The notes below the pieces were generated by a model that made no database searches, was not told the origin of the DNA, and was given only the letters and a program-made list of their open reading frames with translations. The position numbers were made by a program, and so were the translations under genes. A DNA stretch of 64,000 nt from Escherichia coli. GTDB taxonomy: Bacteria; Pseudomonadota; Gammaproteobacteria; Enterobacterales; Enterobacteriaceae. Positions 1,083 to 57,814 of this stretch are shown here, piece by piece (within the stretch, counting starts at the first letter, position 1; the number at the start of each line of letters is the position of its first letter). Where the stretch lies: the NCBI RefSeq assembly GCF_030384885.1, contig NZ_CP128613.1; one strand, written 5' to 3'.

Positions 1083-2132
1083 TCAGTCTGTTAGTGTGCG
1101 ATTATCGATAACAAAACGATATTTCACATCACCACGTAGCATTCGCTCATAGGCTTCATTAATTTGATCGGCCCGAATCATCTCTATATCAGCCACGATG
1201 CCATGTTCGGCGCAAAAATCGAGCATCTCCTGTGTTTCTGGAATGCCGCCAATCATAGAGCCGGCTATCGCGCGGCGTTTCATGATCAGGTTGAAAACTT
1301 CCGGCGATTTATGCGGTGTCGCAGGCGCACCAACCAGCGTCATGGTGCCATCGCGCTTCAGCAAGGTGGTAAAATCGTCGAGATTATGTGGCGCAGCTAC
1401 GGTATTCAAAATGAAATCGAAACTCTTCAGATGAGTCGCCATCTCATCGGCATTGCGTGAGTTAACAACTTCATCGGCCCCCAGGGCTTTTGCCGCTTCG
1501 CGTTTTGACTCAGACGTGGTAAACGCCACTACATGCGCCCCCATCGCGTGGGCCAGCTTTATCCCCATATGCCCCAGACCGCCAATGCCGACCACTCCCA
1601 CTTTTTTACCCGGCCCGGCCTGCCAGTGACGTAGCGGCGAGTATGTGGTGATCCCTGCACACAACAAAGGCGCCACCGCCGCCAGCTGCTCTTGCGGGTG
1701 ACGAATACGCAGAACATATCGCTCATGAACGACGATCTGTTGTGAGTAGCCGCCCAGCGTATGGCCCGGTTCATCCGGCGTCGGCGAGTTATAGGTGCCG
1801 GTCATGTGATCACAGTAGTTTTCCAGCCCATCTTCACACTCTTCGCAATGTTTACAGCTGTCGACAATGCAGCCGACACCGACCAAATCGCCCGGTGCAT
1901 GTTTTTTTACCTGATCACCAACGGCTACCACGCGCCCCACAATTTCATGACCCGGCACGCAGGGGTAAACCGTCCCCGCCCACTCGGAACGCACCTGGTG
2001 GATATCGGAATGGCAGACGCCACAGTAAGCGATTTCGATTTTGACATCATGCGGTCCCGGTTCACGCCGGGTAATATCCATCGGTTCCAGCGGTTGTTTA
2101 GCGGAATATGCACCAACAGCTTTGATCTTCAT
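1083..2132 (-). CDS. yahK: Zn-dependent NADPH alcohol/aldehyde dehydrogenase (MDR family)
   Basis: 349 aa; catalytic zinc motif GHEIVG, structural-zinc cysteine cluster (CKHCEECEDGLENYC), Rossmann motif GIGGLGHMG. Confidence 0.9.
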   Translation of the reverse strand: MKIKAVGAYSAKQPLEPMDITRREPGPHDVKIEIAYCGVCHSDIHQVRSEWAGTVYPCVPGHEIVGRVVAVGDQVKKHAPGDLVGVGCIVDSCKHCEECEDGLENYCDHMTGTYNSPTPDEPGHTLGGYSQQIVVHERYVLRIRHPQEQLAAVAPLLCAGITTYSPLRHWQAGPGKKVGVVGIGGLGHMGIKLAHAMGAHVVAFTTSESKREAAKALGADEVVNSRNADEMATHLKSFDFILNTVAAPHNLDDFTTLLKRDGTMTLVGAPATPHKSPEVFNLIMKRRAIAGSMIGGIPETQEMLDFCAEHGIVADIEMIRADQINEAYERMLRGDVKYRFVIDNRTLTD

Positions 2133-2218
2133 TGTGTTTACTCCTGATTAGCTATGTGTATTTGGCGATGCCTGATATGTCATCGCGGCAAAACGCGTCC
2201 ATTGAATATAGCCAATAT

Positions 2219-3205
2219 TTAAACCACCCGATCCAGCCCCAACATGCCGCGAGCCTGAATGAAACAGAGCAGCAACGTTCCCCATAAGGCCATCGTCAGG
2301 TAGGGGCTTATCCCGAGAATATTGAAGCCGCTTTCAATAATTTGCAGAAGAAACAGCGCCAGCACCATACCAATTATCCGCCCGCTGCCGCCGTCCGGAT
2401 TAACCCCGCCGAGTACTGCCGCGAGGATTGACACCAGCAAGTACGATTCGCCATAAGAGGCCTTAGCCGAGTTGAGTTTCGACATCATCAAAAATGCTGC
2501 TACCGCACAAAGCAAGGCGGAAATGACATACACCCATATCAGCACCCGACGCGTGTTAATACCGGAGTAAAGTGTTGCTCGTTCGTTAGAACCAATCAGA
2601 TAAATGGATTTACCGAGCGGCGTTTTCTCCAGCAATATCCACAGCCCCAGCGCCACTGCGGTAAACAACCACATCGGTAGCGGAATACCGAACCACTGTG
2701 CATGATTCAACCACAGCACCCATGAGGGATAATTGGCAATGGCGCTACCGCCTGTCACCAGAATATTTACCCCCTTGAGCAACGTCATCATCCCAAGCGT
2801 TGCAAGAATTGGCGACACTCGAATACCAGCAATCAATACGCCGTTACATAAACCGATTATCACCGCCGCGCCAGCGCCCGCCAGCAGCGTAGCGACAACC
2901 GTAGCAATACCCGGTGGATACTGAGTCGCCACCCACGCCATCACCAGTGAACAGGCGTTAGCAGTGGCAATAATTGACAAGTTAATGCCACCGCAAAGCA
3001 TGGTCACCGCCATAGCCAACGCCAGAATGCCCAGCACGGGCATTTGCGAAGCGACGGACTGGAAATTACTTATCGACCAGAAAATCTCCGGCATAGTAAT
3101 GCTGAAGGCGGCAACAGTTAGCACCAGCAGGCCGATCAAGTAAAACTCAATGTTATTACGCCACGATTTTTTCATAGCAGACTCCGGTTCTGATGCTGAC
3201 TCCAC
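2219..3205 (-). CDS. ABC transporter permease (monosaccharide/CUT2-type)
   Basis: 328-aa highly hydrophobic multi-TM protein; start overlaps the stop of the upstream permease (translational coupling). Confidence 0.85.
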   Translation of the reverse strand: MESASEPESAMKKSWRNNIEFYLIGLLVLTVAAFSITMPEIFWSISNFQSVASQMPVLGILALAMAVTMLCGGINLSIIATANACSLVMAWVATQYPPGIATVVATLLAGAGAAVIIGLCNGVLIAGIRVSPILATLGMMTLLKGVNILVTGGSAIANYPSWVLWLNHAQWFGIPLPMWLFTAVALGLWILLEKTPLGKSIYLIGSNERATLYSGINTRRVLIWVYVISALLCAVAAFLMMSKLNSAKASYGESYLLVSILAAVLGGVNPDGGSGRIIGMVLALFLLQIIESGFNILGISPYLTMALWGTLLLCFIQARGMLGLDRVV

Positions 3206-22548: not shown

Positions 22549-24237
22549 TTGCAATTTGACTACATCATTATTGGCGCCGGCTCTGCCGGCAACGTCCTCG
22601 CGACACGTCTGACTGAAGATCCGAACACTACCGTGCTGCTGCTTGAAGCGGGCGGCCCGGACTATCGCTTTGACTTCCGTACCCAAATGCCCGCTGCGCT
22701 GGCGTTCCCGCTACAGGGTAAACGCTATAACTGGGCGTATGAGACCGAGCCGGAACCGTTTATGAACAACCGTCGCATGGAGTGCGGACGCGGTAAGGGG
22801 CTTGGTGGATCATCATTGATCAACGGCATGTGTTACATCCGTGGTAACGCGCTGGATCTCGATAACTGGGCGAAAGAACCCGGTCTGGAGAACTGGAGCT
22901 ACCTCGACTGCCTGCCCTACTACCGCAAGGCCGAGACGCGCGATGTGGGCGAGAACGACTACCACGGCGCTGATGGCCCGGTAAGCGTGACCACCTCAAA
23001 ACCGGGTGTCAATCCGCTGTTTGAAGCGATGATTGAGGCGGGCGTGCAGGCGGGCTATCCGCGCACAGAAGACCTTAACGGTTATCAGCAGGAAGGTTTC
23101 GGCCCGATGGACCGCACCGTCACGCCGCAGGGCCGTCGCGCCAGCACCGCGCGGGGTTATCTCGATCAGGCTAAATCGCGCCCGAACCTGACTATTCGAA
23201 CTCACGCCATGACCGATCACATTATCTTTGACGGCAAACGCGCGGTAGGCGTCGAGTGGCTGGAAGGCGACAGCACCATCCCAACCCGCGCAACGGCCAA
23301 CAAAGAAGTGCTGTTATGTGCAGGCGCGATTGCCTCACCACAAATCCTGCAACGCTCCGGCGTCGGCAACGCTGAACTGCTGGCCGAATTTGATATTCCG
23401 CTGGTGCATGATTTGCCCGGCGTGGGCGAAAATCTTCAGGATCATCTGGAGATGTACCTGCAATACGAGTGCAAAGAACCGGTTTCCCTCTACCCTGCCC
23501 TGCAGTGGTGGAATCAGCCGAAAATCGGTGCGGAGTGGCTGTTTGGCGGCACCGGCGTGGGTGCCAGCAACCACTTTGAAGCAGGCGGATTTATTCGCAG
23601 CCGTGAGGAATTTGCGTGGCCGAATATTCAGTACCATTTCCTGCCAGTGGCGATTAACTATAACGGCTCGAACGCAGTGAAAGAGCACGGCTTCCAGTGC
23701 CATGTCGGATCGATGCGCTCGCCAAGCCGTGGGCATGTGCGGATTAAATCCCGCGACCCGCACCAGCATCCGGCGATTTTGTTTAACTACATGTCGCACG
23801 AACAGGACTGGCAGGAGTTCCGCGACGCGATTCGCATCACCCGCGAGATCATGCATCAACCGGCGCTGGATCAATACCGTGGCCGCGAAATCAGCCCCGG
23901 CGCGGAATGCCAGACAGATGAGCAGCTCGATGAGTTCGTGCGTAATCACGCCGAAACCGCCTTCCACCCATGCGGTACGTGCAAAATGGGGTACGACGAG
24001 ATGTCCGTTGTGGATGGCGAAGGCCGCGTGCACGGGCTGGAAGGATTACGCGTAGTCGATGCGTCAATTATGCCGCAGATTATCACCGGCAATCTGAACG
24101 CCACGACCATTATGATTGGCGAGAAAATGGCGGATATAATTCGCGGACGAGAAGCGTTGTCCAGAAGTCTGGCGGCGTATTTTGTGGCGAATGGGATGCC
24201 AGTAAGAGCGAAAAAACTGAATCGCGATTTGAACTAA
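22549..24237 (+). CDS. betA: Choline dehydrogenase (GMC oxidoreductase, FAD)
   Basis: N-terminal FAD motif [11 protein letters not shown]. The only in-frame start with a good RBS (AGGAGG, ~5 nt upstream) is TTG at ~22549; the track's ATG at 22504 lies inside betB without an SD. Confidence 0.9.
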
Positions 24238-24256
24238 CGCAGGAACTTATAAGCTT

Positions 24257-24315
24257 GAGAGTTACCGTTCTACGATAAGGACCGAATCCTTATATAAAAA
24301 ACATAGGTAACTCTC
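24257..24315. repeat. Nested inverted repeats downstream of betA (outer GAGAGTTACC / GGTAACTCTC, inner ATAAGGA-CCGAA-TCCTTAT)
   Basis: Read directly; could be a terminator or REP-like structure. Confidence 0.3.
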
Positions 24316-24870
24316 ATGCTTCATATCCAGTATTCATGATGCTGGTTTTTTGCTGATGTTTTTACCAGAATATTCCTGATACAGACTATTAATTCAAGCT
24401 TATCTGCGACAGATTTCATTTTCTGGATATATTATGAGTGACAAATCAAACAGGATATCGATCTGATTGAAATTTTATTTTATCTGAAGAAAAAGATTCG
24501 TGTTATTCTGTTTATTATAGCTGTTTGTATGACAATGGTGCTATTATTTCTGTACATCAATAAAGACAATATAAAGCTGAGTTACAGCCTAAAAATAAAC
24601 CACACAACATCAGGCATACTTGTAAGCTGTGATAGCAATAATAACTTTGCCTGTCAGACCACAATGACTGAAGATGTTATTCAGCGAATTACGAGTTTTT
24701 TAGACCAGTACTAATGCTAAAAATTGCCTTGTCAAAAAAATGGTAGATGAATACAAACAAAACTCTGGGCAGTAATAAACAGCATTCTGACAGAGAGTGC
24801 CTGTATAAAGCTGAAGTGACAATGACCGGGAAGGGAGCCCGTCTTCAGGAAAGGATTCCTGTCTTTTTCA

Positions 24871-43542: not shown

Positions 43543-44014
43543 ATATCTATTACTCTCCCGAGAGTAAAACTATCAAACCAATGAGTAACCGATACAGCCT
43601 CGCAAATTCTTTCAGATAATTAACCCGTCACTGCGGCACGTTCTCTCATAAGGCGTGCCTGCTGTGTAATCCAGTATGTATCCGGCATACTTGACGGTTT
43701 AATAGAACTCAATTCCTTTCCCAGGTTACCAACAACGATATCTTGTATAACACCCCAGGAGATACGACATTATGATGAGATGAGGTATGCTCCTCAGCGC
43801 CAATCAACGCCAGGGCTGGGCCAGTTTTGAGATCAGACTCATTCCCGGACTGACTTCAGGCGACATATATCAATGACGTTGGGGCAATAAAAGATAGCCG
43901 ATGTAATACATCTATTCAAATTTGTGATACATGTCAAAAAATTGGTTGACCAAACTCGTTATTTATATAAGGGCACTTACGAAGTGCACTCTTTTTTAAA
44001 GCGAGGAAGTACCA

Positions 44015-50451: not shown

Positions 50452-52084
50452 CCTACTGATAGCGATGATAATCTTTGCGCTATTCTGGCCAGCAACCGCG
50501 CTCAGAGCTGCAGTGAGCAAAACAACCTGGGCGGATGCACCGGCACGCGAGTTTGTGTTTGTCGAAAACAACTCAGACGACAACTTTTTCGTCACTCCTG
50601 GCGGGGCGCTGGATCCGCGCCTGACCGGTGCCAACCGCTGGACCGGTTTAAAATACACTGGCTCAGGAACCATCTATCAACAAAGCCTCGGCTACATTGA
50701 TAACGGTTACAACACCGGCCTTTATACCAACTGGAAGTTTGATATGTGGCTGGAAAATTCGCCGGTTTCATCTCCTTTAACTGGCTTGCGCTGCATCAAC
50801 TGGTACACAGGGTGTAATATGACCACCAGTCTTATCCTGCCGCAAACCACCGACGCCAGTGGATTTTATGGCGCGACGGTGACCAGCGGCGGCTCGAAGT
50901 GGATGCACGGCATGTTGTCAGACGCGTTTTACCAGTATCTGCAACAAATGCCCGTTGGCAGCAGCTTTACGATGACCATCAATGCCTGCCAAACCTCAGT
51001 GAACTATGACGCCAGCAGCGGCGCGCGCTGTAAGGATCAGGCCTCCGGCAACTGGTATGTTCGCAACGTCACCCATACGAAAGCAGCAAATTTGCGGTTG
51101 ATAAATACCCATTCGCTGGCGGAGGTATTTATCAACAGCGACGGAGTACCGACTCTGGGCGAAGGGAACGCCGACTGCCGGACGCAAACCATCGGCAGCC
51201 GTTCAGGATTAAGTTGTAAGATGGTTAACTATACCCTGCAAACAAACGGGCTCAGCAACACCTCAATCCATATATTCCCGGCGATCGCCAACTCGTCGTT
51301 AGCCTCGGCCGTCGGGGCGTACGATATGCAGTTCAGTCTGAATGGCAGTTCATGGAAACCGGTGAGCAATACCGCCTATTACTACACCTTCAACGAGATG
51401 AAGAGCGCAGACTCGATCTATGTTTTCTTCTCGAGCAACTTCTTTAAGCAGATGGTGAACCTGGGGATCAGCGATATCAACACCAAAGATCTATTCAACT
51501 TTCGCTTTCAGAACACCACATCACCGGAGTCTGGCTGGTATGAATTTTCTACCTCCAACACGCTGATTATCAAACCCCGTGATTTCAGCATCAGTATTAT
51601 CTCCGATGAATATACTCAGACACCGTCGCGAGAGGGATATGTCGGCAGCGGCGAACCGGCACTCGATTTCGGCTATATCGTAACCACCAGCGGTAAAACA
51701 GCTGCCGACGAAGTGCTGATCAAGGTGACCGGACCCGCGCAGGTGATTGGCGGGCGCTCCTATTGTGTCTTCAGCTCCGATGACGGTAAGGCGAAAGTAC
51801 CGTTCCCGGCGACGCTTTCCTTTATTACCCGCAACGGAGCTACAAAAACCTACGATGCCGGGTGCGATGATAGCTGGCGGGATATGACCGATGCGCTGTG
51901 GCTAACCACACCGTGGACTGATATCTCTGGCGAAGTGGGGCAGATGGATAAGACCACAGTCAAATTTTCGATTCCAATGGATAACGCCATTTCGCTGCGT
52001 ACGGTAGATGATAACGGCTGGTTTGGCGAAGTCAGCGCTTCAGGAGAGATTCATGTTCAGGCGACGTGGCGTAACATTAACTAA
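50441..52084 (+). CDS. ecpD: ECP pilus tip adhesin
   Basis: 547 aa, signal peptide; overlaps the ecpC stop. Confidence 0.9.
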
Positions 52085-52763
52085 GACCCTGCTGACAGTG
52101 GTCTGTATGCTGGCGACACCTTTGACACAGGCGATTTCGGTCGGCAATCTGACTTTTTCACTGCCGTCCGAGACTGACTTTGTCAGCAAACGTGTAGTGA
52201 ATAACAACAAAAGCGCGCGGATATACCGTATTGCCATCAGTGCCATCGATAGTCCAGGCAGCAGTGAATTGCGCACTCGACCGGTGGATGGTGAACTGCT
52301 TTTCGCTCCCCGCCAGCTGGCGTTGCAGGCTGGTGAGAGTGAGTATTTTAAATTTTACTATCATGGTCCACAGGATAACCGCGAGCGCTACTACCGGGTC
52401 TCATTTCGCGAGGTCCCCACTCGCAACCAGACAAGACGCAGCCCAACCGGCGGCGAGGTCAGCACGGAGCCGGTGGTGGTGATGGATACCATTCTGGTAG
52501 TACGACCTCGTCAGGTTCAGTTTAAATGGTCCTTCGACCAGGTGACAGGAACGGTAAGTAACACCGGCAACACGTGGTTTAAGCTACTGATTAAACCAGG
52601 ATGTGATTCGACCGAAGAGGAAGGCGACGCCTGGTATCTACGTCCGGGAGACGTAGTTCATCAGCCTGAGTTACGTCAGCCGGGGAATCATTATCTGGTC
52701 TATAACGACAAATTCATTAAGATTAGCGATTCCTGTCCTGCTAAGCCCCCTTCGGCGGACTAA
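52053..52763 (+). CDS. ecpE: ECP pilus second chaperone
   Basis: 236 aa from [11 protein letters not shown]; paralogous to EcpB (shared …RYYRI/RYYRV… motifs); overlaps the ecpD 3' end. Confidence 0.85.
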
Positions 52764-52923
52764 GACTTATCCATCGGACGAGGGAAGAATTCCACCTCAG
52801 AGACTCAAATAATCGTTTAAATGATGTGGAAGCGATCGTCAATGTCACCTGTAATGATGGGCTTTCTCATATGTACACCATAGTGTTCAGGAGACACGGA
52901 AAAGTGCCAGGCAGCCTGCTAAC

Positions 52924-53053
52924 GAGTGGTTTCTTCACGAATTAGTACGTAAAATCGGTAACGGCTGGAAATCATTCAATACTCACACTATCGAAAGTTC
53001 CCCAGCCAACCGCGGTACGTTCTTACATACGATGTACCGCTGTTCTCTTTACG
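52924..53053 (+). repeat. Copy A of a ~130-bp imperfect direct repeat (non-coding), upstream of ykgJ
   Basis: By-eye alignment with 57096..57227 gives roughly 75% identity, with shared blocks GAAATCATTCAATA(C/T)TC(A/G)CACTATC, CCAGCCAACCGCG and CATACGA. Confidence 0.5.
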
Positions 53054-53076
53054 ATTTATAGCTGTACTGGTGAATT

Positions 53077-53406
53077 ATGAGCAATCTGAATCCATGCATG
53101 ACGTGTGGTGCCTGTTGTGCATTTTTCCGCGTCTCTTTTTACTGGGCCGAAGCCGACGATGCTGGCGGTACCATTCCCGCCAGGCTCACTGAACAAATAT
53201 CCCCTTTTCACCGATGCATGAGCGGTACCAATCAGAAAAACCCCCGATGTATTGCCCTTGCAGGAACACCGGGCAAAAATGCCTGCTGCACGATATATAA
53301 AAATCGATCGTCCACGTGCAGAGAATTCGCCATGTCTGGTGAGAACGGAGAAGTCAATGAGGCTTGCAATCGTGCAAGAGCTAAATACGGGCTGACACCG
53401 TTATAA
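53077..53406 (+). CDS. ykgJ: Cysteine-rich putative Fe/Zn-binding protein
   Basis: 109 aa; CMTCGACC and further Cys clusters. Confidence 0.85.
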
Positions 53407-53428
53407 ATATGCAATAATTAATTGCACT

Positions 53429-53464
53429 GCCCCGCCAGCTATAATCGCGGGGCTTCGTTTTTCA
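53429..53464 (+). terminator. Rho-independent terminator of ykgJ
   Basis: Stem GCCCCGC / GCGGGGC followed by TTCGTTTTT. Confidence 0.65.
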
Positions 53465-53611
53465 GGGATAACAAAACCCGAAACTTCTTCCATCTGCCAG
53501 CAACAATGCCTCTTCCTCTATAGTGTTCTCCGGATCTACAGCATCCTGAAGTAGCGCGATGTACTCACTGGCTATCTGCATCAGAAAGTTAAAAACAATG
53601 TTTTTAACCTA

Positions 53612-53640
53612 TAAAAATGGCGCTGTATTTGCGCCATTTT
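53612..53640. terminator. Bidirectional terminator-like hairpin (AAAAATGGCGC … GCGCCATTTTT) 3' of yagU
   Basis: Perfect stem flanked by an A-tract and a T-tract. Confidence 0.5.
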
Positions 53641-53654
53641 TATCATTCAATGCA

Positions 53655-54269
53655 TTATCTGTTTGAGCCTAAAGGGATCTCAGGGTCTGGCTCATGAGTA
53701 ATTCTGTTTCGTAAATCTCTGCGAATAATTTCAATGGACCAGAACCAGACTAAATGTCCAAAAATTTCAGAAACATTCTCATACCACGGGAGATCAAACA
53801 GAGGTGGCGTCAGTCCCATGAGAGGGAATGAAATCATATGAACAAAAAGTTGGGCTAAAGCACCTGCCAGTAAGCCCTGCCAGAGTTTAATTTTTGGAAA
53901 TACTTCAGCGACCACACAATAACCGACAGCAAACACTATCGAAAAGATAATGTGCGTAACACCAACCCAGTTAAAGACATGCCCGGCAAAGGTATAAACA
54001 GCCGCATTGGGATCTGTCAGCCCCAGCCAGTCTCGAAGAAAAATATACGGAGGATTGAGAAAATTACGGGAGCAATCAATTTGCCCAGCAGCCCTGATTA
54101 ATGATTCCGGGCCACACGCTGCATTAAACATATCCACCGGGCTACGTGGCGGCAATGGAACTTCAGCCCCCCACTTCACAAATGCGGAAACAACGCCAGC
54201 AATTAGCCCAATGAATGCAGCAAGACCATAACGTCTGCGGTTCGGTGGAGTTTGTTCAAATATATTCAT
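53655..54269 (-). CDS. yagU: Inner-membrane protein (DUF1440)
   Basis: 204-aa multi-TM protein. Confidence 0.85.
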
Positions 54270-54331
54270 ATTTACCCTGTTTGTTTCATTATGTTGTACA
54301 CCTCTTCAGGAGTATTCATAAAACAAGATAA

Positions 54332-54500
54332 ATGTAAAGAACTGTATTGTTTTGTATAATGCAATGGTGACTAATCGCCAATTAATATAAGCACCATCAT
54401 TTCTCCATATTTTTATGTTAGAAGTGACAAGGAGAAATGTAATGTTTCTCTCAGAGAATATAAATCATTCCTTTTGCCCACCTTAATGGTGGGCTTTTTT
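54332..54500 (+). ncRNA. Candidate short transcription unit: promoter (perfect -10 TATAAT at ~54355), 14-codon ORF (MFLSENINHSFCPP, 54442..54486, SD AAGGAG) and intrinsic terminator (54476..54500)
   Basis: TATAAT preceded by TG; then an RBS-plus-mini-ORF whose stop sits inside a GC-rich hairpin (GCCCACC-TTAAT-GGTGGGC) followed by TTTTTT. Confidence 0.35.
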
Positions 54501-54865
54501 ATGCAAAACCTGAACACCCTGTGGTATTCCCCTGGCATTATCACTTTCGCGATTAACCAACAGCCAGACCAGCAAACACGCCACTACAGGCACAGCAAAA
54601 TCCATCAGGCTTGCCACACCCCATGCGTGCGGCTCAAAGCCGCCCCGCCATGGCATATTAATCCGCTTACCATTTTCGAACAGCTGATTGGTTTAGTCCG
54701 GTGTTTCCCTGCTTGCACTTAAAAATGAGCGGATGGGAAACTCTCGAAATGGTTCGTCGATATGCTCACCTTTCAGTCAGGCATTTCACCGCGCACGCGA
54801 GCAAAATCAAAGGCACATGAGGAGAATGTGGTTGACTTAAAAACGAGGAAACTTATTGATTTAAA

Positions 54866-54912
54866 TGGTGCCGATAATAGGAGTCGAACCTACGACCTTC
54901 GCATTACGAATT
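54866..54912 (-). tRNA. Pseudo-tRNA: 3' ~47 nt of a tRNA-Thr (thrW-like) = att core of an integrated element
   Basis: The minus strand reads …ATTCGTAATGCGAAGGTCGTAGGTTCGACTCCTATTATCGGCACCA (anticodon arm with CGU, T-arm GGTTCGACTCC, acceptor 3' strand + CCA); the 5' half (GCCGATA…) is absent, so this is a fragment. Confidence 0.75.
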
Positions 54913-55282
54913 ATAAGAATCCGTTTCTAATTCAAAGCATTACCACATCAACACTGCGCTCACACGTCCCACCACATCAAAACATGTAAAGCCTTGCAAG
55001 CCATTGTGAGGCCTTATGTGTCTCAGTTTTGTCCCACCTTGTATTACGACTTGCATAACCAATGAAGATAAACGTGACGACAAACGACGCAGCAGTCTTC
55101 TTTTCTTTCACACTTTCCCCACTCAGCATGCATACCTTCTACTATAACTGTAGTGAATGTCTGTTATGAGCGAGGAGCGGACTATCTTTCTGTGCTAAGC
55201 ACAGAAGTTTAAATTAATAAATAGAGATTAAGATGTTTATTGGTTACATTGATATTTATAATTTGATTGCCTTGAAATTCCT

Positions 55283-55322
55283 AAGCCGAATTCATGACGT
55301 CTTCATCACATGAATTCGGCTT
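55283..55322. terminator. Perfect 14-bp-stem hairpin (AAGCCGAATTCATG … CATGAATTCGGCTT) 3' of the 447-aa cargo gene
   Basis: Exact reverse-complement arms around a 12-nt loop, ~30 bp beyond the gene's stop. Confidence 0.55.
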
Positions 55323-55351
55323 ATGCATAATACTAAGTTGGTTTTATTAAG

Positions 55352-56695
55352 TCATTTCTTTGCCGCGCTTTTATTGCACTTCTTACAGCCTTCAATCAAT
55401 TTTTCAGTTATTATATAATAATAAGGAATGTAAATGTTTAACCCGCAAGTTTTAATCGAATCGAAAGCAAGAACTTTCACAATGGATTCTTCTCCATCTT
55501 TCTCCATTAGCAATATATCACTTAAAGGCAAATCATTAGGATTGTAAATCCTCACATCGCCAGGCTGTCTTTCATAGGCTTCGATGTCATCACCTGGTTG
55601 GCCATAGGCTAAATGAGTGGCTTTAATCCAGTTTATTGGTTCAGCATTTTGACACCAGGAGATTATTTTTTCTAATTTTTCAGGTGTGTAAGCTTTTACA
55701 TAATCTCCATGTTTTTCACATCTACCTAGTTCTGAAAAATGGCCCAGGGTGTATTCATAAGAATAATCACCAGCAGTCAATGGTAGTCTAAAGTATTGCT
55801 GAGGCAATGCCTTCTGGACTTTGGTTTTACTCAGCAAATTAAAGGTGATATCATAAAGTTGATATAGACAAACACCCTCTCGATCTGGATATCCATAAGG
55901 CTTGATGTCAGAAAGCATCTCAATATCAGAATTATAAACACTTGCATAATCATCACTTCCAAACATGAAAAAACCTTTTGATAGAATGAATATTGCATTA
56001 GGAAGAACGTTTTTTTCAAAATTCTGCGAGTGAGTTTTTATTTCTTGTACTATGTCCATCCAATCCATATCAGTATCATAGGCGAAGATAATTCCAAAAC
56101 CATTAGTCTGAATTCTCTCCTCTGAATGTATAAATATGTTCTGATTTATACCATGTTTCTTTAGTTTTTTGAATGAGCGGATATTTTCGAAAGCACTTTT
56201 CAGTTCTTTTTTTGTTAGTTTTGACTTAACCTGAATCACACCATAGCAGTACTCCACAGGTAAAACCTCAAAAATTTCCTGTCGCTGCATAAGCGAAAAT
56301 GAATTAAAAGCATCATAAAAAAGAATGTCGATTTCATTACTGAGATGTCCTGAGGTTGACGCTACACGGACACTTGATTTTGAGATGGCATAGCTTTGCG
56401 GTAAGAGTTTATTTTCATTGAAAAAGCATCTTAAGAGTTCCTCTCTGACAGTACCAACATCTCTTGGATGCTTAATATCTTTCGATATTTCAAAATCTTG
56501 AAGCATTTTCCTCTGTAAGTGAATGAACTCCCTTTCAAGACCATAAAATTCTTTATCTTTAGATCTCAGTTTGCTTGCACGAGAAACTTGATCGGATATC
56601 CATTCCTTTGTGCGAGACTCTCTCTCAGCAAAATCATCACGTTGTTTTTTTACAGCACCGGTCAAGCGTTTTCTTGTGTTTTCATTATCGGACAT
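55352..56695 (-). CDS. Hypothetical 447-aa protein of unknown function (AT-rich cargo gene; possible PD-(D/E)xK-like nuclease motif)
   Basis: Long uninterrupted ORF in visibly AT-rich DNA, K/E-rich N-terminus, a segment (…EIDILFYDAF…EYCYGVIQVKSK…) reminiscent of a restriction-endonuclease-like fold; stands alone between a terminator and the repeat/invertase region. Confidence 0.7.
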   Translation of the reverse strand: MSDNENTRKRLTGAVKKQRDDFAERESRTKEWISDQVSRASKLRSKDKEFYGLEREFIHLQRKMLQDFEISKDIKHPRDVGTVREELLRCFFNENKLLPQSYAISKSSVRVASTSGHLSNEIDILFYDAFNSFSLMQRQEIFEVLPVEYCYGVIQVKSKLTKKELKSAFENIRSFKKLKKHGINQNIFIHSEERIQTNGFGIIFAYDTDMDWMDIVQEIKTHSQNFEKNVLPNAIFILSKGFFMFGSDDYASVYNSDIEMLSDIKPYGYPDREGVCLYQLYDITFNLLSKTKVQKALPQQYFRLPLTAGDYSYEYTLGHFSELGRCEKHGDYVKAYTPEKLEKIISWCQNAEPINWIKATHLAYGQPGDDIEAYERQPGDVRIYNPNDLPLSDILLMEKDGEESIVKVLAFDSIKTCGLNIYIPYYYIITEKLIEGCKKCNKSAAKK

Positions 56696-57095
56696 AAATT
56701 AACCTTAAGTTGATAAGTTTTGTGGTGAATTTATAAAGCCTGAGGGATAAACATTTATAGTCTATAAGTTACTATTTATTTGAGATAGTAAGCCAATTTT
56801 ATTAGATGAAGAAACGTTCATAACCTCCTCAACTACGTTTCAATCGGCAACATCGGAGAAGTACACTTTGACAATATATAGCATATTGAAGCAGCTGTAA
56901 CTTAGAGCGCGTACACTCAAGATTTCCCGCTGCGGTGATGGCGGACGACTGCGTTTGATAACTCATTTCCCTCACCAACTATCGGACCTGTTCCTGATTG
57001 ATTATCACATTATAATGTGAGCAATGTCCGCTCCTAGCACATAGCAGTTCTAGAGACAATGGCGTAAAGTCATGGAGAATCGGTGGGAGGATATT

Positions 57096-57227
57096 CAGTT
57101 TCATTCATGCCGAAATACGGTAAAATCTATAACAGATAGAAATCATTCAATATTCGCACTATCAGAAGCTGGCCAGCCAACCGCGCACGATTTTGCATAC
57201 GACATGCTACGGTTTCATTTATCTCCG
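57096..57227 (+). repeat. Copy B of the ~130-bp imperfect direct repeat
   Basis: See copy A (52924..53053). Confidence 0.5.
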
Positions 57228-57814
57228 ACCGGAAACTTCTTATACAGTGTCGATACACCAACATCATAGATGATCTCCACCTTCTGGCGAGGAACGCCTG
57301 ATGCAATTAATCGCCCGGCCTGCGCCCTTTGTTCTGGTGTAAGTTTGGGACGACGTCCACCAATTCGTCCCTGTGCGCGAGCAACTTCCAGTCCAGCTTT
57401 TGTTCGTTCAACAATCAGTTCTCGTTCCATTTCAGCCAGGGCACCCATCACATGAAAGAAAAAACGCCCCATCGGTGTGCTGGTATCAATAGCATCCGTC
57501 AGGCTGCGAAAATTAACGCCACGTTCGCGCAACTCCTCAACCAGAATGACCAGATGGACAAGCGTGCCGGGACCGGGTTTATTCAGCGCTTCAATCAGGC
57601 GATCGCGCTGGTCAAAGCAGTCATCTCCCACCACATAAGCTGTGATGGACGGGCGGAAAGTGACTTTTCCCAGATCTTCGGTATAGGGCTTGTCGCGGTT
57701 CGGGTATTCATGTGTTTCCACACGGCGACCGGTTCCCGCACTTTCTTCTTCAACCTTAAACGGCACACCTCGAAATGACGCATCCTGAAGCCTGTCTTTC
57801 CACGTCATATACAC
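57215..57814 (-). pseudogene. Pin/Hin/Gin-family serine invertase C-terminal fragment fused to an unrelated N-terminus
   Basis: The C-terminal ~115 aa (…ELRERGVNFRSLTDAIDTSTPMGRFFFHVMGALAEMERELIVERT…RRPKLTPEQ…STLYKK) match the invertase core and HTH; the N-terminal ~85 aa show no resolvase catalytic-Ser region. Confidence 0.6.

Follow-up and report, generated by a model that had tools for sequence, protein, structure and literature searches.

A 64,000-nucleotide stretch of an Escherichia coli genome (RefSeq assembly GCF_030384885.1, contig NZ_CP128613.1), referred to here as the window, contains two copies of a noncoding element that we call the module. Copy A lies between ecpE (52008-52763) and ykgJ, and copy B lies between a minus-strand gene for a 447-amino-acid protein and a minus-strand open reading frame (ORF) that includes a fragment of a DNA invertase. 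An earlier, sequence-only reading of this DNA had reported that positions 52924-53053 and 57096-57227 form a repeat, and its positions and neighbors proved correct. The two segments align in the same orientation, with 92 of 130 positions identical (approximately 70%) in a pairwise alignment. Identity is 82% in an ungapped 66-nucleotide core (52949-53014 versus 57120-57185), and BLASTN reports 79.8% over 84 nucleotides. The local alignment score of the pair is 84, compared with 15.3 ± 2.2 (maximum 26, z approximately 31) in 2000 dinucleotide-preserving shuffles. The pair is the sole direct repeat of at least 40 nucleotides within the window; the longest exact stretch common to the copies is approximately 14 nucleotides, and they are separated by 4.17 kb. 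As the earlier reading also held, the repeat lacks a convincing ORF: no conserved ORF extends across the shared core, and the small ORFs that overlap it, read by eye, differ among phage lambda, the Qin prophage and the window. The sole overlap with a pseudogene, a dinI remnant, is confined to the first 18 or so nucleotides of copy A.

That the element "occurs twice" is true of the window but misleading, because the module is a large multicopy family in E. coli and its phages. BLASTN against E. coli genomes, a check proposed with the sequence-only reading, detected the family with either copy in 5393 of 5426 complete genomes, at a median of 3 and a maximum of 11 places per genome. BLASTN also found the module in 185-195 phage records, and a pattern scan of viral contigs yielded 120 loci with 82 distinct cores. 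In lambda, the module occupies positions 24169-24326 on the leftward strand and separates ea31 from ea47 in the b region. The Stx phages carry it after dinI, at the end of the prophage, and of the two copies in E. coli K-12, one precedes ykgJ and the other is at the ydfJ end of Qin. In a scan of 100,044 genomes (one per species), the module was confined to Escherichia, except for one real copy on a contig (L127) of an unclassified soil 'Proteobacteria' metagenome-assembled genome; the remaining hits were clearly contaminant contigs or matches due to chance. A possible third, heavily decayed relative lies at 43573-43682 (plus strand) of the window, between an oxidoreductase gene and ykgM. Its hairpin alone is recognizable (CUGCGGCACGUUCUCUCAUAAGGCGUGCCUGC, approximately 80% like the Qin hairpin); it scores 19.7 bits with a covariance model (E approximately 0.01) and has no phage BLAST match.

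Each module is a unit of approximately 100 nucleotides that comprises, in order, the octamer GTAAAATC, an imperfect stem-loop (SL1) and a GC-rich hairpin (SL2). Similarity between subfamilies with unrelated left flanks begins at the octamer, which is also invariant in a seven-sequence alignment made without GTAAAATC as a search pattern. SL2 begins 2 nucleotides after SL1, has the consensus CCGCAGCACGU-loop-ACGUGxCUGCGG, and a U-run frequently comes after it. Compensatory changes, for which the sequence-only reading had advised a search, preserve SL2 as an RNA hairpin. Differences between copies are mostly of this kind (CCGUGG/CUACGG, CCGCGG/CCGCGG, CCGCAGUA/UACUGCGG and CCGCAAUCAUGC/GCAUGGUUGCGG), and in a 54-sequence alignment, 27 cells are changed on both sides of SL2, versus 8 ± 2.4 in shuffles (0 of 500). 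When partner columns were slid as a register-shift control, pairing in SL2 fell from 91% to 24-59%. RNAalifold applied to a MAFFT alignment gave a poor consensus, owing to a one-column register problem, and the structure was therefore set by hand. The SL2 variants follow the identity of the right-hand neighbor gene, and at least four T residues occur within 8 nucleotides after SL2 in 45 of 85 unique copies. Fold z-scores are -4.0 for copy A (52949-53050), -4.4 for the Qin copy and -3.05 for the lambda copy. Copy A is intact and scores 126.7 bits with the family covariance model, within a family range of 72-144 bits.

SL1, as drawn from minimum-free-energy folds, reads GGCUGG AAAUCA UUCAAUA (CUCGCAC) UAUCGAA AGUUCA CCAGCC, with the loop in parentheses. 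Pairing is present in approximately 93% of cells, a conservation that leaves little room for covariation and that is inflated by the pattern used to collect the family. In each of the 79 unique members tested, the minus-strand form of SL1 is the more stable (mean -16.0 versus -10.6 kcal/mol), a uniformity that reflects shared ancestry and not independent events. Two conserved A·C mismatches become G·U pairs on the minus strand, where SL1 is followed by GUUACC GAUUUUAC. Here GAUUUUAC is the minus-strand form of the octamer, a short U-run directly after SL1, and we infer that it acts as the U-tract for minus-strand transcripts. SL2 folds without strand bias.

SL2 ends transcripts in vivo, in the plus direction of the window, at both K-12 copies. 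Published Term-seq tables (Adams et al. 2021, PMC7815308) list an orphan 3' end at K-12 position 304212/304213 on the minus strand, with 88,000-99,000 reads in three conditions, 30-31 nucleotides upstream of the ykgJ start. This end lies outside Rho-dependent regions (Rho score 1.44, 'No'). The flanking sequence printed for it is identical to window positions 52998-53057, and the 3' end therefore falls at approximately 53046-53047 of the window, 6-7 nucleotides after SL2. For the Qin copy, the same tables list orphan 3' ends at 1632571/1632574 on the plus strand, with 2,000-3,000 reads, directly after CUGCGGUUUUU (GGUUUUU).

Gene context was surveyed for 129 copies of the module. In 72 of them, an intact dinI-like gene for an 82-amino-acid protein ends exactly 10 nucleotides before GTAAAATC. 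On the right side lies the stop codon of a convergent pin gene, at approximately +100 to +140, or of a convergent tfa gene, at approximately +112 to +121; these stops fall within a few nucleotides of SL2. Alternatively, the right side holds a same-strand cargo gene, such as a YkgJ-like gene that starts at +129. Modules also occur directly after DusA-type or IntS-type integrase genes, in the same orientation, or after int-attP(thrW). The module thus marks where the int/dinI side and the tail-fiber side converge, and it is the left border of the cargo slot. An SL2-type hairpin without SL1 is located right after the tfa stop in lambda, at the ea47/tfa junction (L004 4173-4272, lambda approximately 22555-22654), and in another locus (L027 6290-6385), and ea47, as cargo, is therefore bracketed by two related hairpins. 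This arrangement suggests cargo exchange through recombination at the hairpins. Because prophage dinI is preceded by two LexA-box-like sites, CTGT-N8-ACAG (L002 3700-3810), transcripts that enter the module from dinI are probably SOS-induced; neither site survives upstream of copy A.

The 3' arm of SL2 is continuous, in several phages, with the 3' end of transfer-messenger RNA (ssrA; ...GCGGGTTCAACTCCCGCCAGCTCCACCA) or a similar tRNA-like end, such that the module abuts the phage's own attachment site (L043 1384-1540 and L025 1707-1850; also L036, L049, L114 and L116). A gene for a 385-amino-acid integrase that ends 92 nucleotides upstream of modules with many right-hand contexts was first read as marking an attachment-site (att) junction. 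This reading was rejected because the integrase is IntS-like and its own att site is expected on its 5' side. The contigs begin at the IntS-like start codon, and the varied right flanks therefore represent mosaicism.

The module is probably a phage terminator or insulator at the edge of a cargo slot, represented in the window by one intact fossil copy and one decayed copy. It belongs to lambda-like (and e14/Mu-tailed) Escherichia phages, at the site where the integrase/dinI transcription unit meets convergent tail-fiber, tfa or invertase genes. SL1 followed by GAUUUUAC might terminate transcripts arriving from the opposite direction, as the strand bias of SL1 and the complement of the octamer suggest. 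SL1 and SL2 together would then form a back-to-back (bidirectional) terminator or an insulator that would separate int/dinI from late tail-gene transcription. Downstream cargo (ykgJ, ea47, ynfT-ydfK) would be expressed solely via read-through.

Several observations weigh against this interpretation. The K-12 end upstream of ykgJ has an intrinsic-terminator score of 2.78, just under the 3.0 cut-off (PMC7815308); the U-tract of copy A is weak (UGUUCUCUUU), whereas that of the Qin copy is UUUUU; and a simple terminator scan flagged neither window copy. The minus-strand role of SL1 is one that we infer, no mapped 3' ends lie on the minus strand and neither K-12 copy has a convergent gene reading into it. 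Variation at one SL1 pair, between U-A and U-G, fits the plus strand instead, and the common descent of the 79 members limits what their strand bias can say. Because the family was gathered with an exact pattern, the apparent conservation of GTAAAATC and GAAATCATTCAA is inflated. Approximately 60 nucleotides of conserved sequence are more than a terminator obviously needs. The 5' end and promoter of the abundant K-12 RNA were not located: a promoter scan of the element was negative, and by eye the subfamilies have no common -35 before a -10-like TAAAAT. The Term-seq evidence covers the two K-12 copies.

Terminators bracket 'morons' in lambdoid phages, a concept of Hendrix and Juhala. The module resembles such terminators, and intrinsic terminators at convergent gene pairs, in its GC-rich covarying hairpin, mapped 3' end, convergent position and location at a cargo edge, and in the U-rich tail of part of the family. 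It differs in having two adjacent hairpins, of which the second would act as argued above, and approximately 60 unusually conserved nucleotides. Both the module and tI/sib of lambda are hairpin elements that border the b region on the int side and share the orientation of int, and the order int - attP - module in thrW-type phages mirrors int - attP - sib in lambda. However, no sequence similarity to tI/sib is visible by eye, and lambda's own module is 3.4 kb further into the b region.

Table 1. Features of the two module copies and their surroundings in the window
Feature	Position	Strand	Description
GTAAAATC octamer	52949..52956	+	Left edge of the shared unit; invariant in the seven-sequence alignment
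SL1	52957..53011	.	Imperfect 19-bp inverted repeat with a 7-nucleotide loop; core 52963-53007; GGU/ACC extension
SL2	53012..53040	+	GC-rich terminator hairpin of copy A; 10-bp stem, 9-nucleotide loop
U-rich tail UGUUCUC and mapped 3' end (K-12 orthologue)	53041..53047	+	From published Term-seq
dinI-like remnant	52810..52941	+	3' two-thirds of the gene, with a 22-nucleotide deletion; directly upstream of copy A
ykgJ	53077..53406	+	ORF; gene in the cargo slot downstream of copy A
tfa remnant (Rfam IS009, EcsR2 small RNA locus)	53449..53649	-	Right border of the fossil phage segment
thrW 3' fragment	54866..54911	+	46 nucleotides, reverse orientation; att scar that ends the prophage remnant with copy B
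447-amino-acid cargo gene	55352..56695	-	DUF6602 protein by RefSeq annotation in a near-identical strain (L003); between the att scar and copy B
Lambda-type upstream block	57020..57119	+	Approximately 100 nucleotides of conserved noncoding sequence common to lambda, phi458 and others
Copy B core	57120..57212	+	GTAAAATC, decayed SL1 (57134-57178) and decayed SL2 (57181-57212)
Fusion ORF	57215..57814	-	Baseplate-hub N-terminus (phrog_184, residues 2-87) and DNA-invertase C-terminus (phrog_125, residues 86-196)

Copy A is nearest to the dinI-ykgJ' modules of Stx phages, with 84.8% identity over 309 nucleotides to that of Stx2_EH2201. The dinI remnant aligns colinearly, in two BLASTN segments, with the intact dinI of this phage (52810-52867 matches L005 679-736, and 52884 on matches L005 775 on), and its local alignment score is 62, versus 16 ± 2 in shuffles (0 of 500). 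Segments with the order dinI, module and ykgJ-like sequence also occur in phages, where they match the chromosome with 80-84% identity over approximately 500 nucleotides. The prophage at L027 has the order module, full-length ykgJ (89% amino acid identity), diguanylate cyclase, intact tfa and tail fiber. In deposited GenBank records of E. coli phages, ykgJ occurs as N-terminal fragments only, and YkgJ matches no PHROG family. Loci L035 and L045 were considered as phages integrated at the chromosomal ykgJ site, but their 84% identity to the chromosome marks them as phage-borne ykgJ-like modules.

The tfa remnant on the other side of ykgJ matches Rfam family IS009 with 199.6 bits and is 78% identical to lambda tfa and tfaQ. 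The IS009 model also matches inside the intact tfa genes of lambda (L004 4313-4511) and Qin (L001 5899-6097), with scores of 218-225 bits, above that of the chromosomal locus. The IS009 family model is, in essence, tfa coding sequence. EcsR2 is a small RNA born from degraded phage tfa in the yagU-ykgJ spacer (Raghavan et al. 2015, PMC4350180). It thus lies in the same fossil phage segment as copy A and is likewise an RNA from relic phage DNA, but it is derived from coding sequence and is unrelated in sequence to the module. Of 5426 E. coli genomes, 4952 have the ecpE-ykgJ arrangement in contiguous form. The chromosomal dinI'-module-ykgJ-tfa' segment is best interpreted as a fossilized b region of a phage, in which ykgJ is the cargo that survived. 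Because dinI' and tfa' remnants flank the chromosomal copy, transfer would have been from phage to chromosome. The strong premature 3' end sits 30 nucleotides upstream of the ykgJ start codon; ykgJ itself is listed as a validated RyhB-repressed target (PMC4666370).

Copy B is located in a remnant of a thrW prophage, 2.2 kb from the thrW att scar and between the invertase fragment and the DUF6602 gene. Its nearest relatives are in phi458 (83.8% identity over 204 nucleotides) and lambda (76.8% over 185 nucleotides). The extent of the lambda-type block upstream was taken from a nine-locus alignment, in which sequences diverge upstream of the block; the idea that this block is a decayed dinI was rejected, as similarity is at chance level. 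By the folding predictions, both hairpins are lost in copy B: its fold z-score is -0.09, and 89 of 200 shuffles fold equally well. Its covariance-model score is 91 bits, near the bottom of the family range, with 11 noncanonical pairs.

The thrW fragment has an exact 25-mer match, where none is expected by chance, and is 93% identical to the int-proximal att region of a thrW-type phage locus (L008). No intact tRNA gene is present anywhere in the window. The DUF6602 cargo protein has only a weak PHROG match. The stop codon of the fusion ORF is 3 nucleotides from the end of the hairpin remnant of copy B, and this in-frame fusion was made by a 7.15-kb deletion of tail-fiber and baseplate genes relative to strain EH10-18-47 (L003 8507-15657). 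In that strain, paoABCD and a LysR-fragment gene (yagP') stand between yagU and the prophage end. A comparison of window positions 54430-54811 with L003 232-5755 indicates that these genes are absent from the window, which has approximately 380 nucleotides of other sequence instead.

A rather unlikely alternative to the terminator reading is that a tyrosine integrase uses the conserved block as its target and attP counterpart, in which case the ykgJ/ecpE spacer would be the ancestral attB. SL1 has a 7-7-7 inverted-repeat layout (TTCAATA CTCGCAC TATCGAA). This layout is typical of recombinase core sites and of the tRNA anticodon loops and T-loops used as att sites. The edges of the SL1 block are recurrent sites of mosaic breakpoints (L011), and some copies directly adjoin thrW and ssrA att fragments. 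Moreover, Nakamura et al. 2021 (PMC8112680) described lambda-like phages that are inserted in lambdoid prophages and flanked by a 96-bp repeat, 'attB-in-PP_2', and this published role as an attachment site counts against the terminator reading. The repeat is approximately 81% identical to the ykgJ/ecpE spacer, with homology extending to 309 bp at 84% (reproduced here at 84.8%), and the authors concluded that phages acquired the block from the chromosome (PMC8112680). The module belongs to this sequence family, and copy A is the chromosomal homologue that they described. Their report treats the block as a DNA integration target of chromosomal origin and makes no mention of RNA structure, termination, the position after dinI or lambda. 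However, the chromosomal site is intact in 4952 of 5,426 genomes, with no occupied or split case in a spread sample. Both window copies are homologous to the family (84.8% over 309 nucleotides for copy A; 79-82% between the copy B core and copy A), and both have a lambdoid location next to cargo. Yet in the window, no block repeats flank a phage with a cognate integrase: between the copies are ykgJ, EcsR2, yagU and a different att scar, with no integrase and no inserted element. Every integrase found beside a module uses another site, of the dusA, thrW or IntS type, the last of which is argW-linked in K-12. The 96-bp junction repeat could instead come from tandem prophages or from homologous recombination; as the module lies at the end of most lambdoid phages, no site-specific use is required. 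Finally, the dinI' and tfa' remnants that flank the chromosomal locus argue against an origin on the chromosome, and it looks phage-derived here.

It is also possible, but improbable, that the modules are a family of trans-acting small RNA (sRNA) genes, each giving an independent SL1-SL2 transcript of approximately 90-100 nucleotides that regulates host or phage mRNAs. The sequence-only reading had offered a small RNA gene family as one of its options, and it is true that a family exists and that the copy upstream of ykgJ is transcribed in K-12. The orphan 3' end there has a read count similar to those that the table lists for known sRNAs, a weaker orphan end marks the Qin copy, whose upstream gene lies on the opposite strand, and the two-hairpin fold is stable. 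By eye, the -10-like TAAAAT lies inside GTAAAATC, approximately 90 nucleotides upstream of the 3' end. However, the subfamilies share no -35 by eye, the promoter scan was negative, and the Rfam check that had been proposed found no family matching the element at its gathering threshold (Rfam 15, E up to 10). No ykgJ/ecpE or ydfJ intergenic node is present in the searchable tables derived from RIL-seq or in Hfq CLASH supplements, an absence that is weak evidence. No searchable paper prints the core sequence, and a literature search for transcripts between lambda ea31 and ea47 found nothing. For the majority of phage copies, the unit amounts to no more than the 3' untranslated region of dinI, and SL1 pairs better on the opposite strand. 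Two known RNAs were compared with the module. HnrS (EcOnc10-12), a prophage sRNA present in up to nine copies, was rejected, being absent from MG1655, located among late genes and 66 nucleotides in length. SL2 (window 53011-53050, minus strand) corresponds, as its reverse complement, to the last 40 model positions of CssrB (RF02799, Shigella chromosomal sRNA B), but the module is not a member: its score is 18-23 bits, whereas the gathering score is 76, the match is on the opposite strand and the rest of the model is unmatched. CssrB probably represents the end of a phage gene joined to an SL2-type hairpin, read from the other strand. A broader reading, in which the module is an unannotated structured RNA element of Escherichia phages that serves at once as terminator, RNA and cargo exchange point, is likewise doubtful. 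Under it, the plus-strand product (SL1 and SL2, approximately 90-100 nucleotides) may be among the abundant orphan RNAs of K-12 and act in trans or gate cargo, and the symmetric SL1 may be a hotspot, like a tRNA stem-loop, for phage recombination or integration. The sequence-only reading had also raised an ancient recombination or duplication that shaped the island boundary, such that one copy was made from the other when the island formed. The shared orientation, the 4.17-kb distance and the nearby prophage boundary are consistent with such an event, and both copies are indeed phage-derived. Local duplication is nevertheless very improbable. Because each copy has closer relatives elsewhere than its window partner, the two copies evidently arrived independently, and their similarity is one of family membership. 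In addition, their left flanks come from different subfamilies (a dinI remnant and a lambda-type block), copy A is at the same locus in approximately 5000 genomes whereas the exact form of copy B is found in a handful, and the longest exact match is as short as noted above. Core genes (ykgJ and yagU) lie between the copies, and the true prophage boundary is the thrW fragment. That the similarity is due to chance in AT-rich DNA, or that both copies are pieces of one coding gene, has almost no probability: nothing beyond the moderate overall identity favors it, and the shuffles, the hundreds of homologues, the core without a conserved frame and the mere 18 or so nucleotides of dinI in copy A all contradict it. 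Of the options that the sequence-only reading had listed, a shared regulatory module comes nearest to the terminator reading favored here, as a conserved hairpin pair acting at the edge of a phage cargo slot.

The homology between the ykgJ/ecpE spacer and prophages is already published under the name attB-in-PP_2. Apparently undescribed so far are the RNA anatomy, the evidence of termination, the link with dinI, the occurrence in lambda and the derivation of the ykgJ locus from a phage. The repeat marks no special island event, but rather standard lambdoid phage architecture met twice. The ecpE-yagU stretch (dinI' - module - ykgJ - tfa'/EcsR2), present in approximately 92% of E. coli genomes, would be a fossil phage cargo region. 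Transfer would then have run opposite to what the one paper noting the homology assumed, and caution is advisable in naming the shared block an attachment site. The module is a conserved, expressed and uncurated RNA element, present even in lambda, and is a candidate for RNA family databases.

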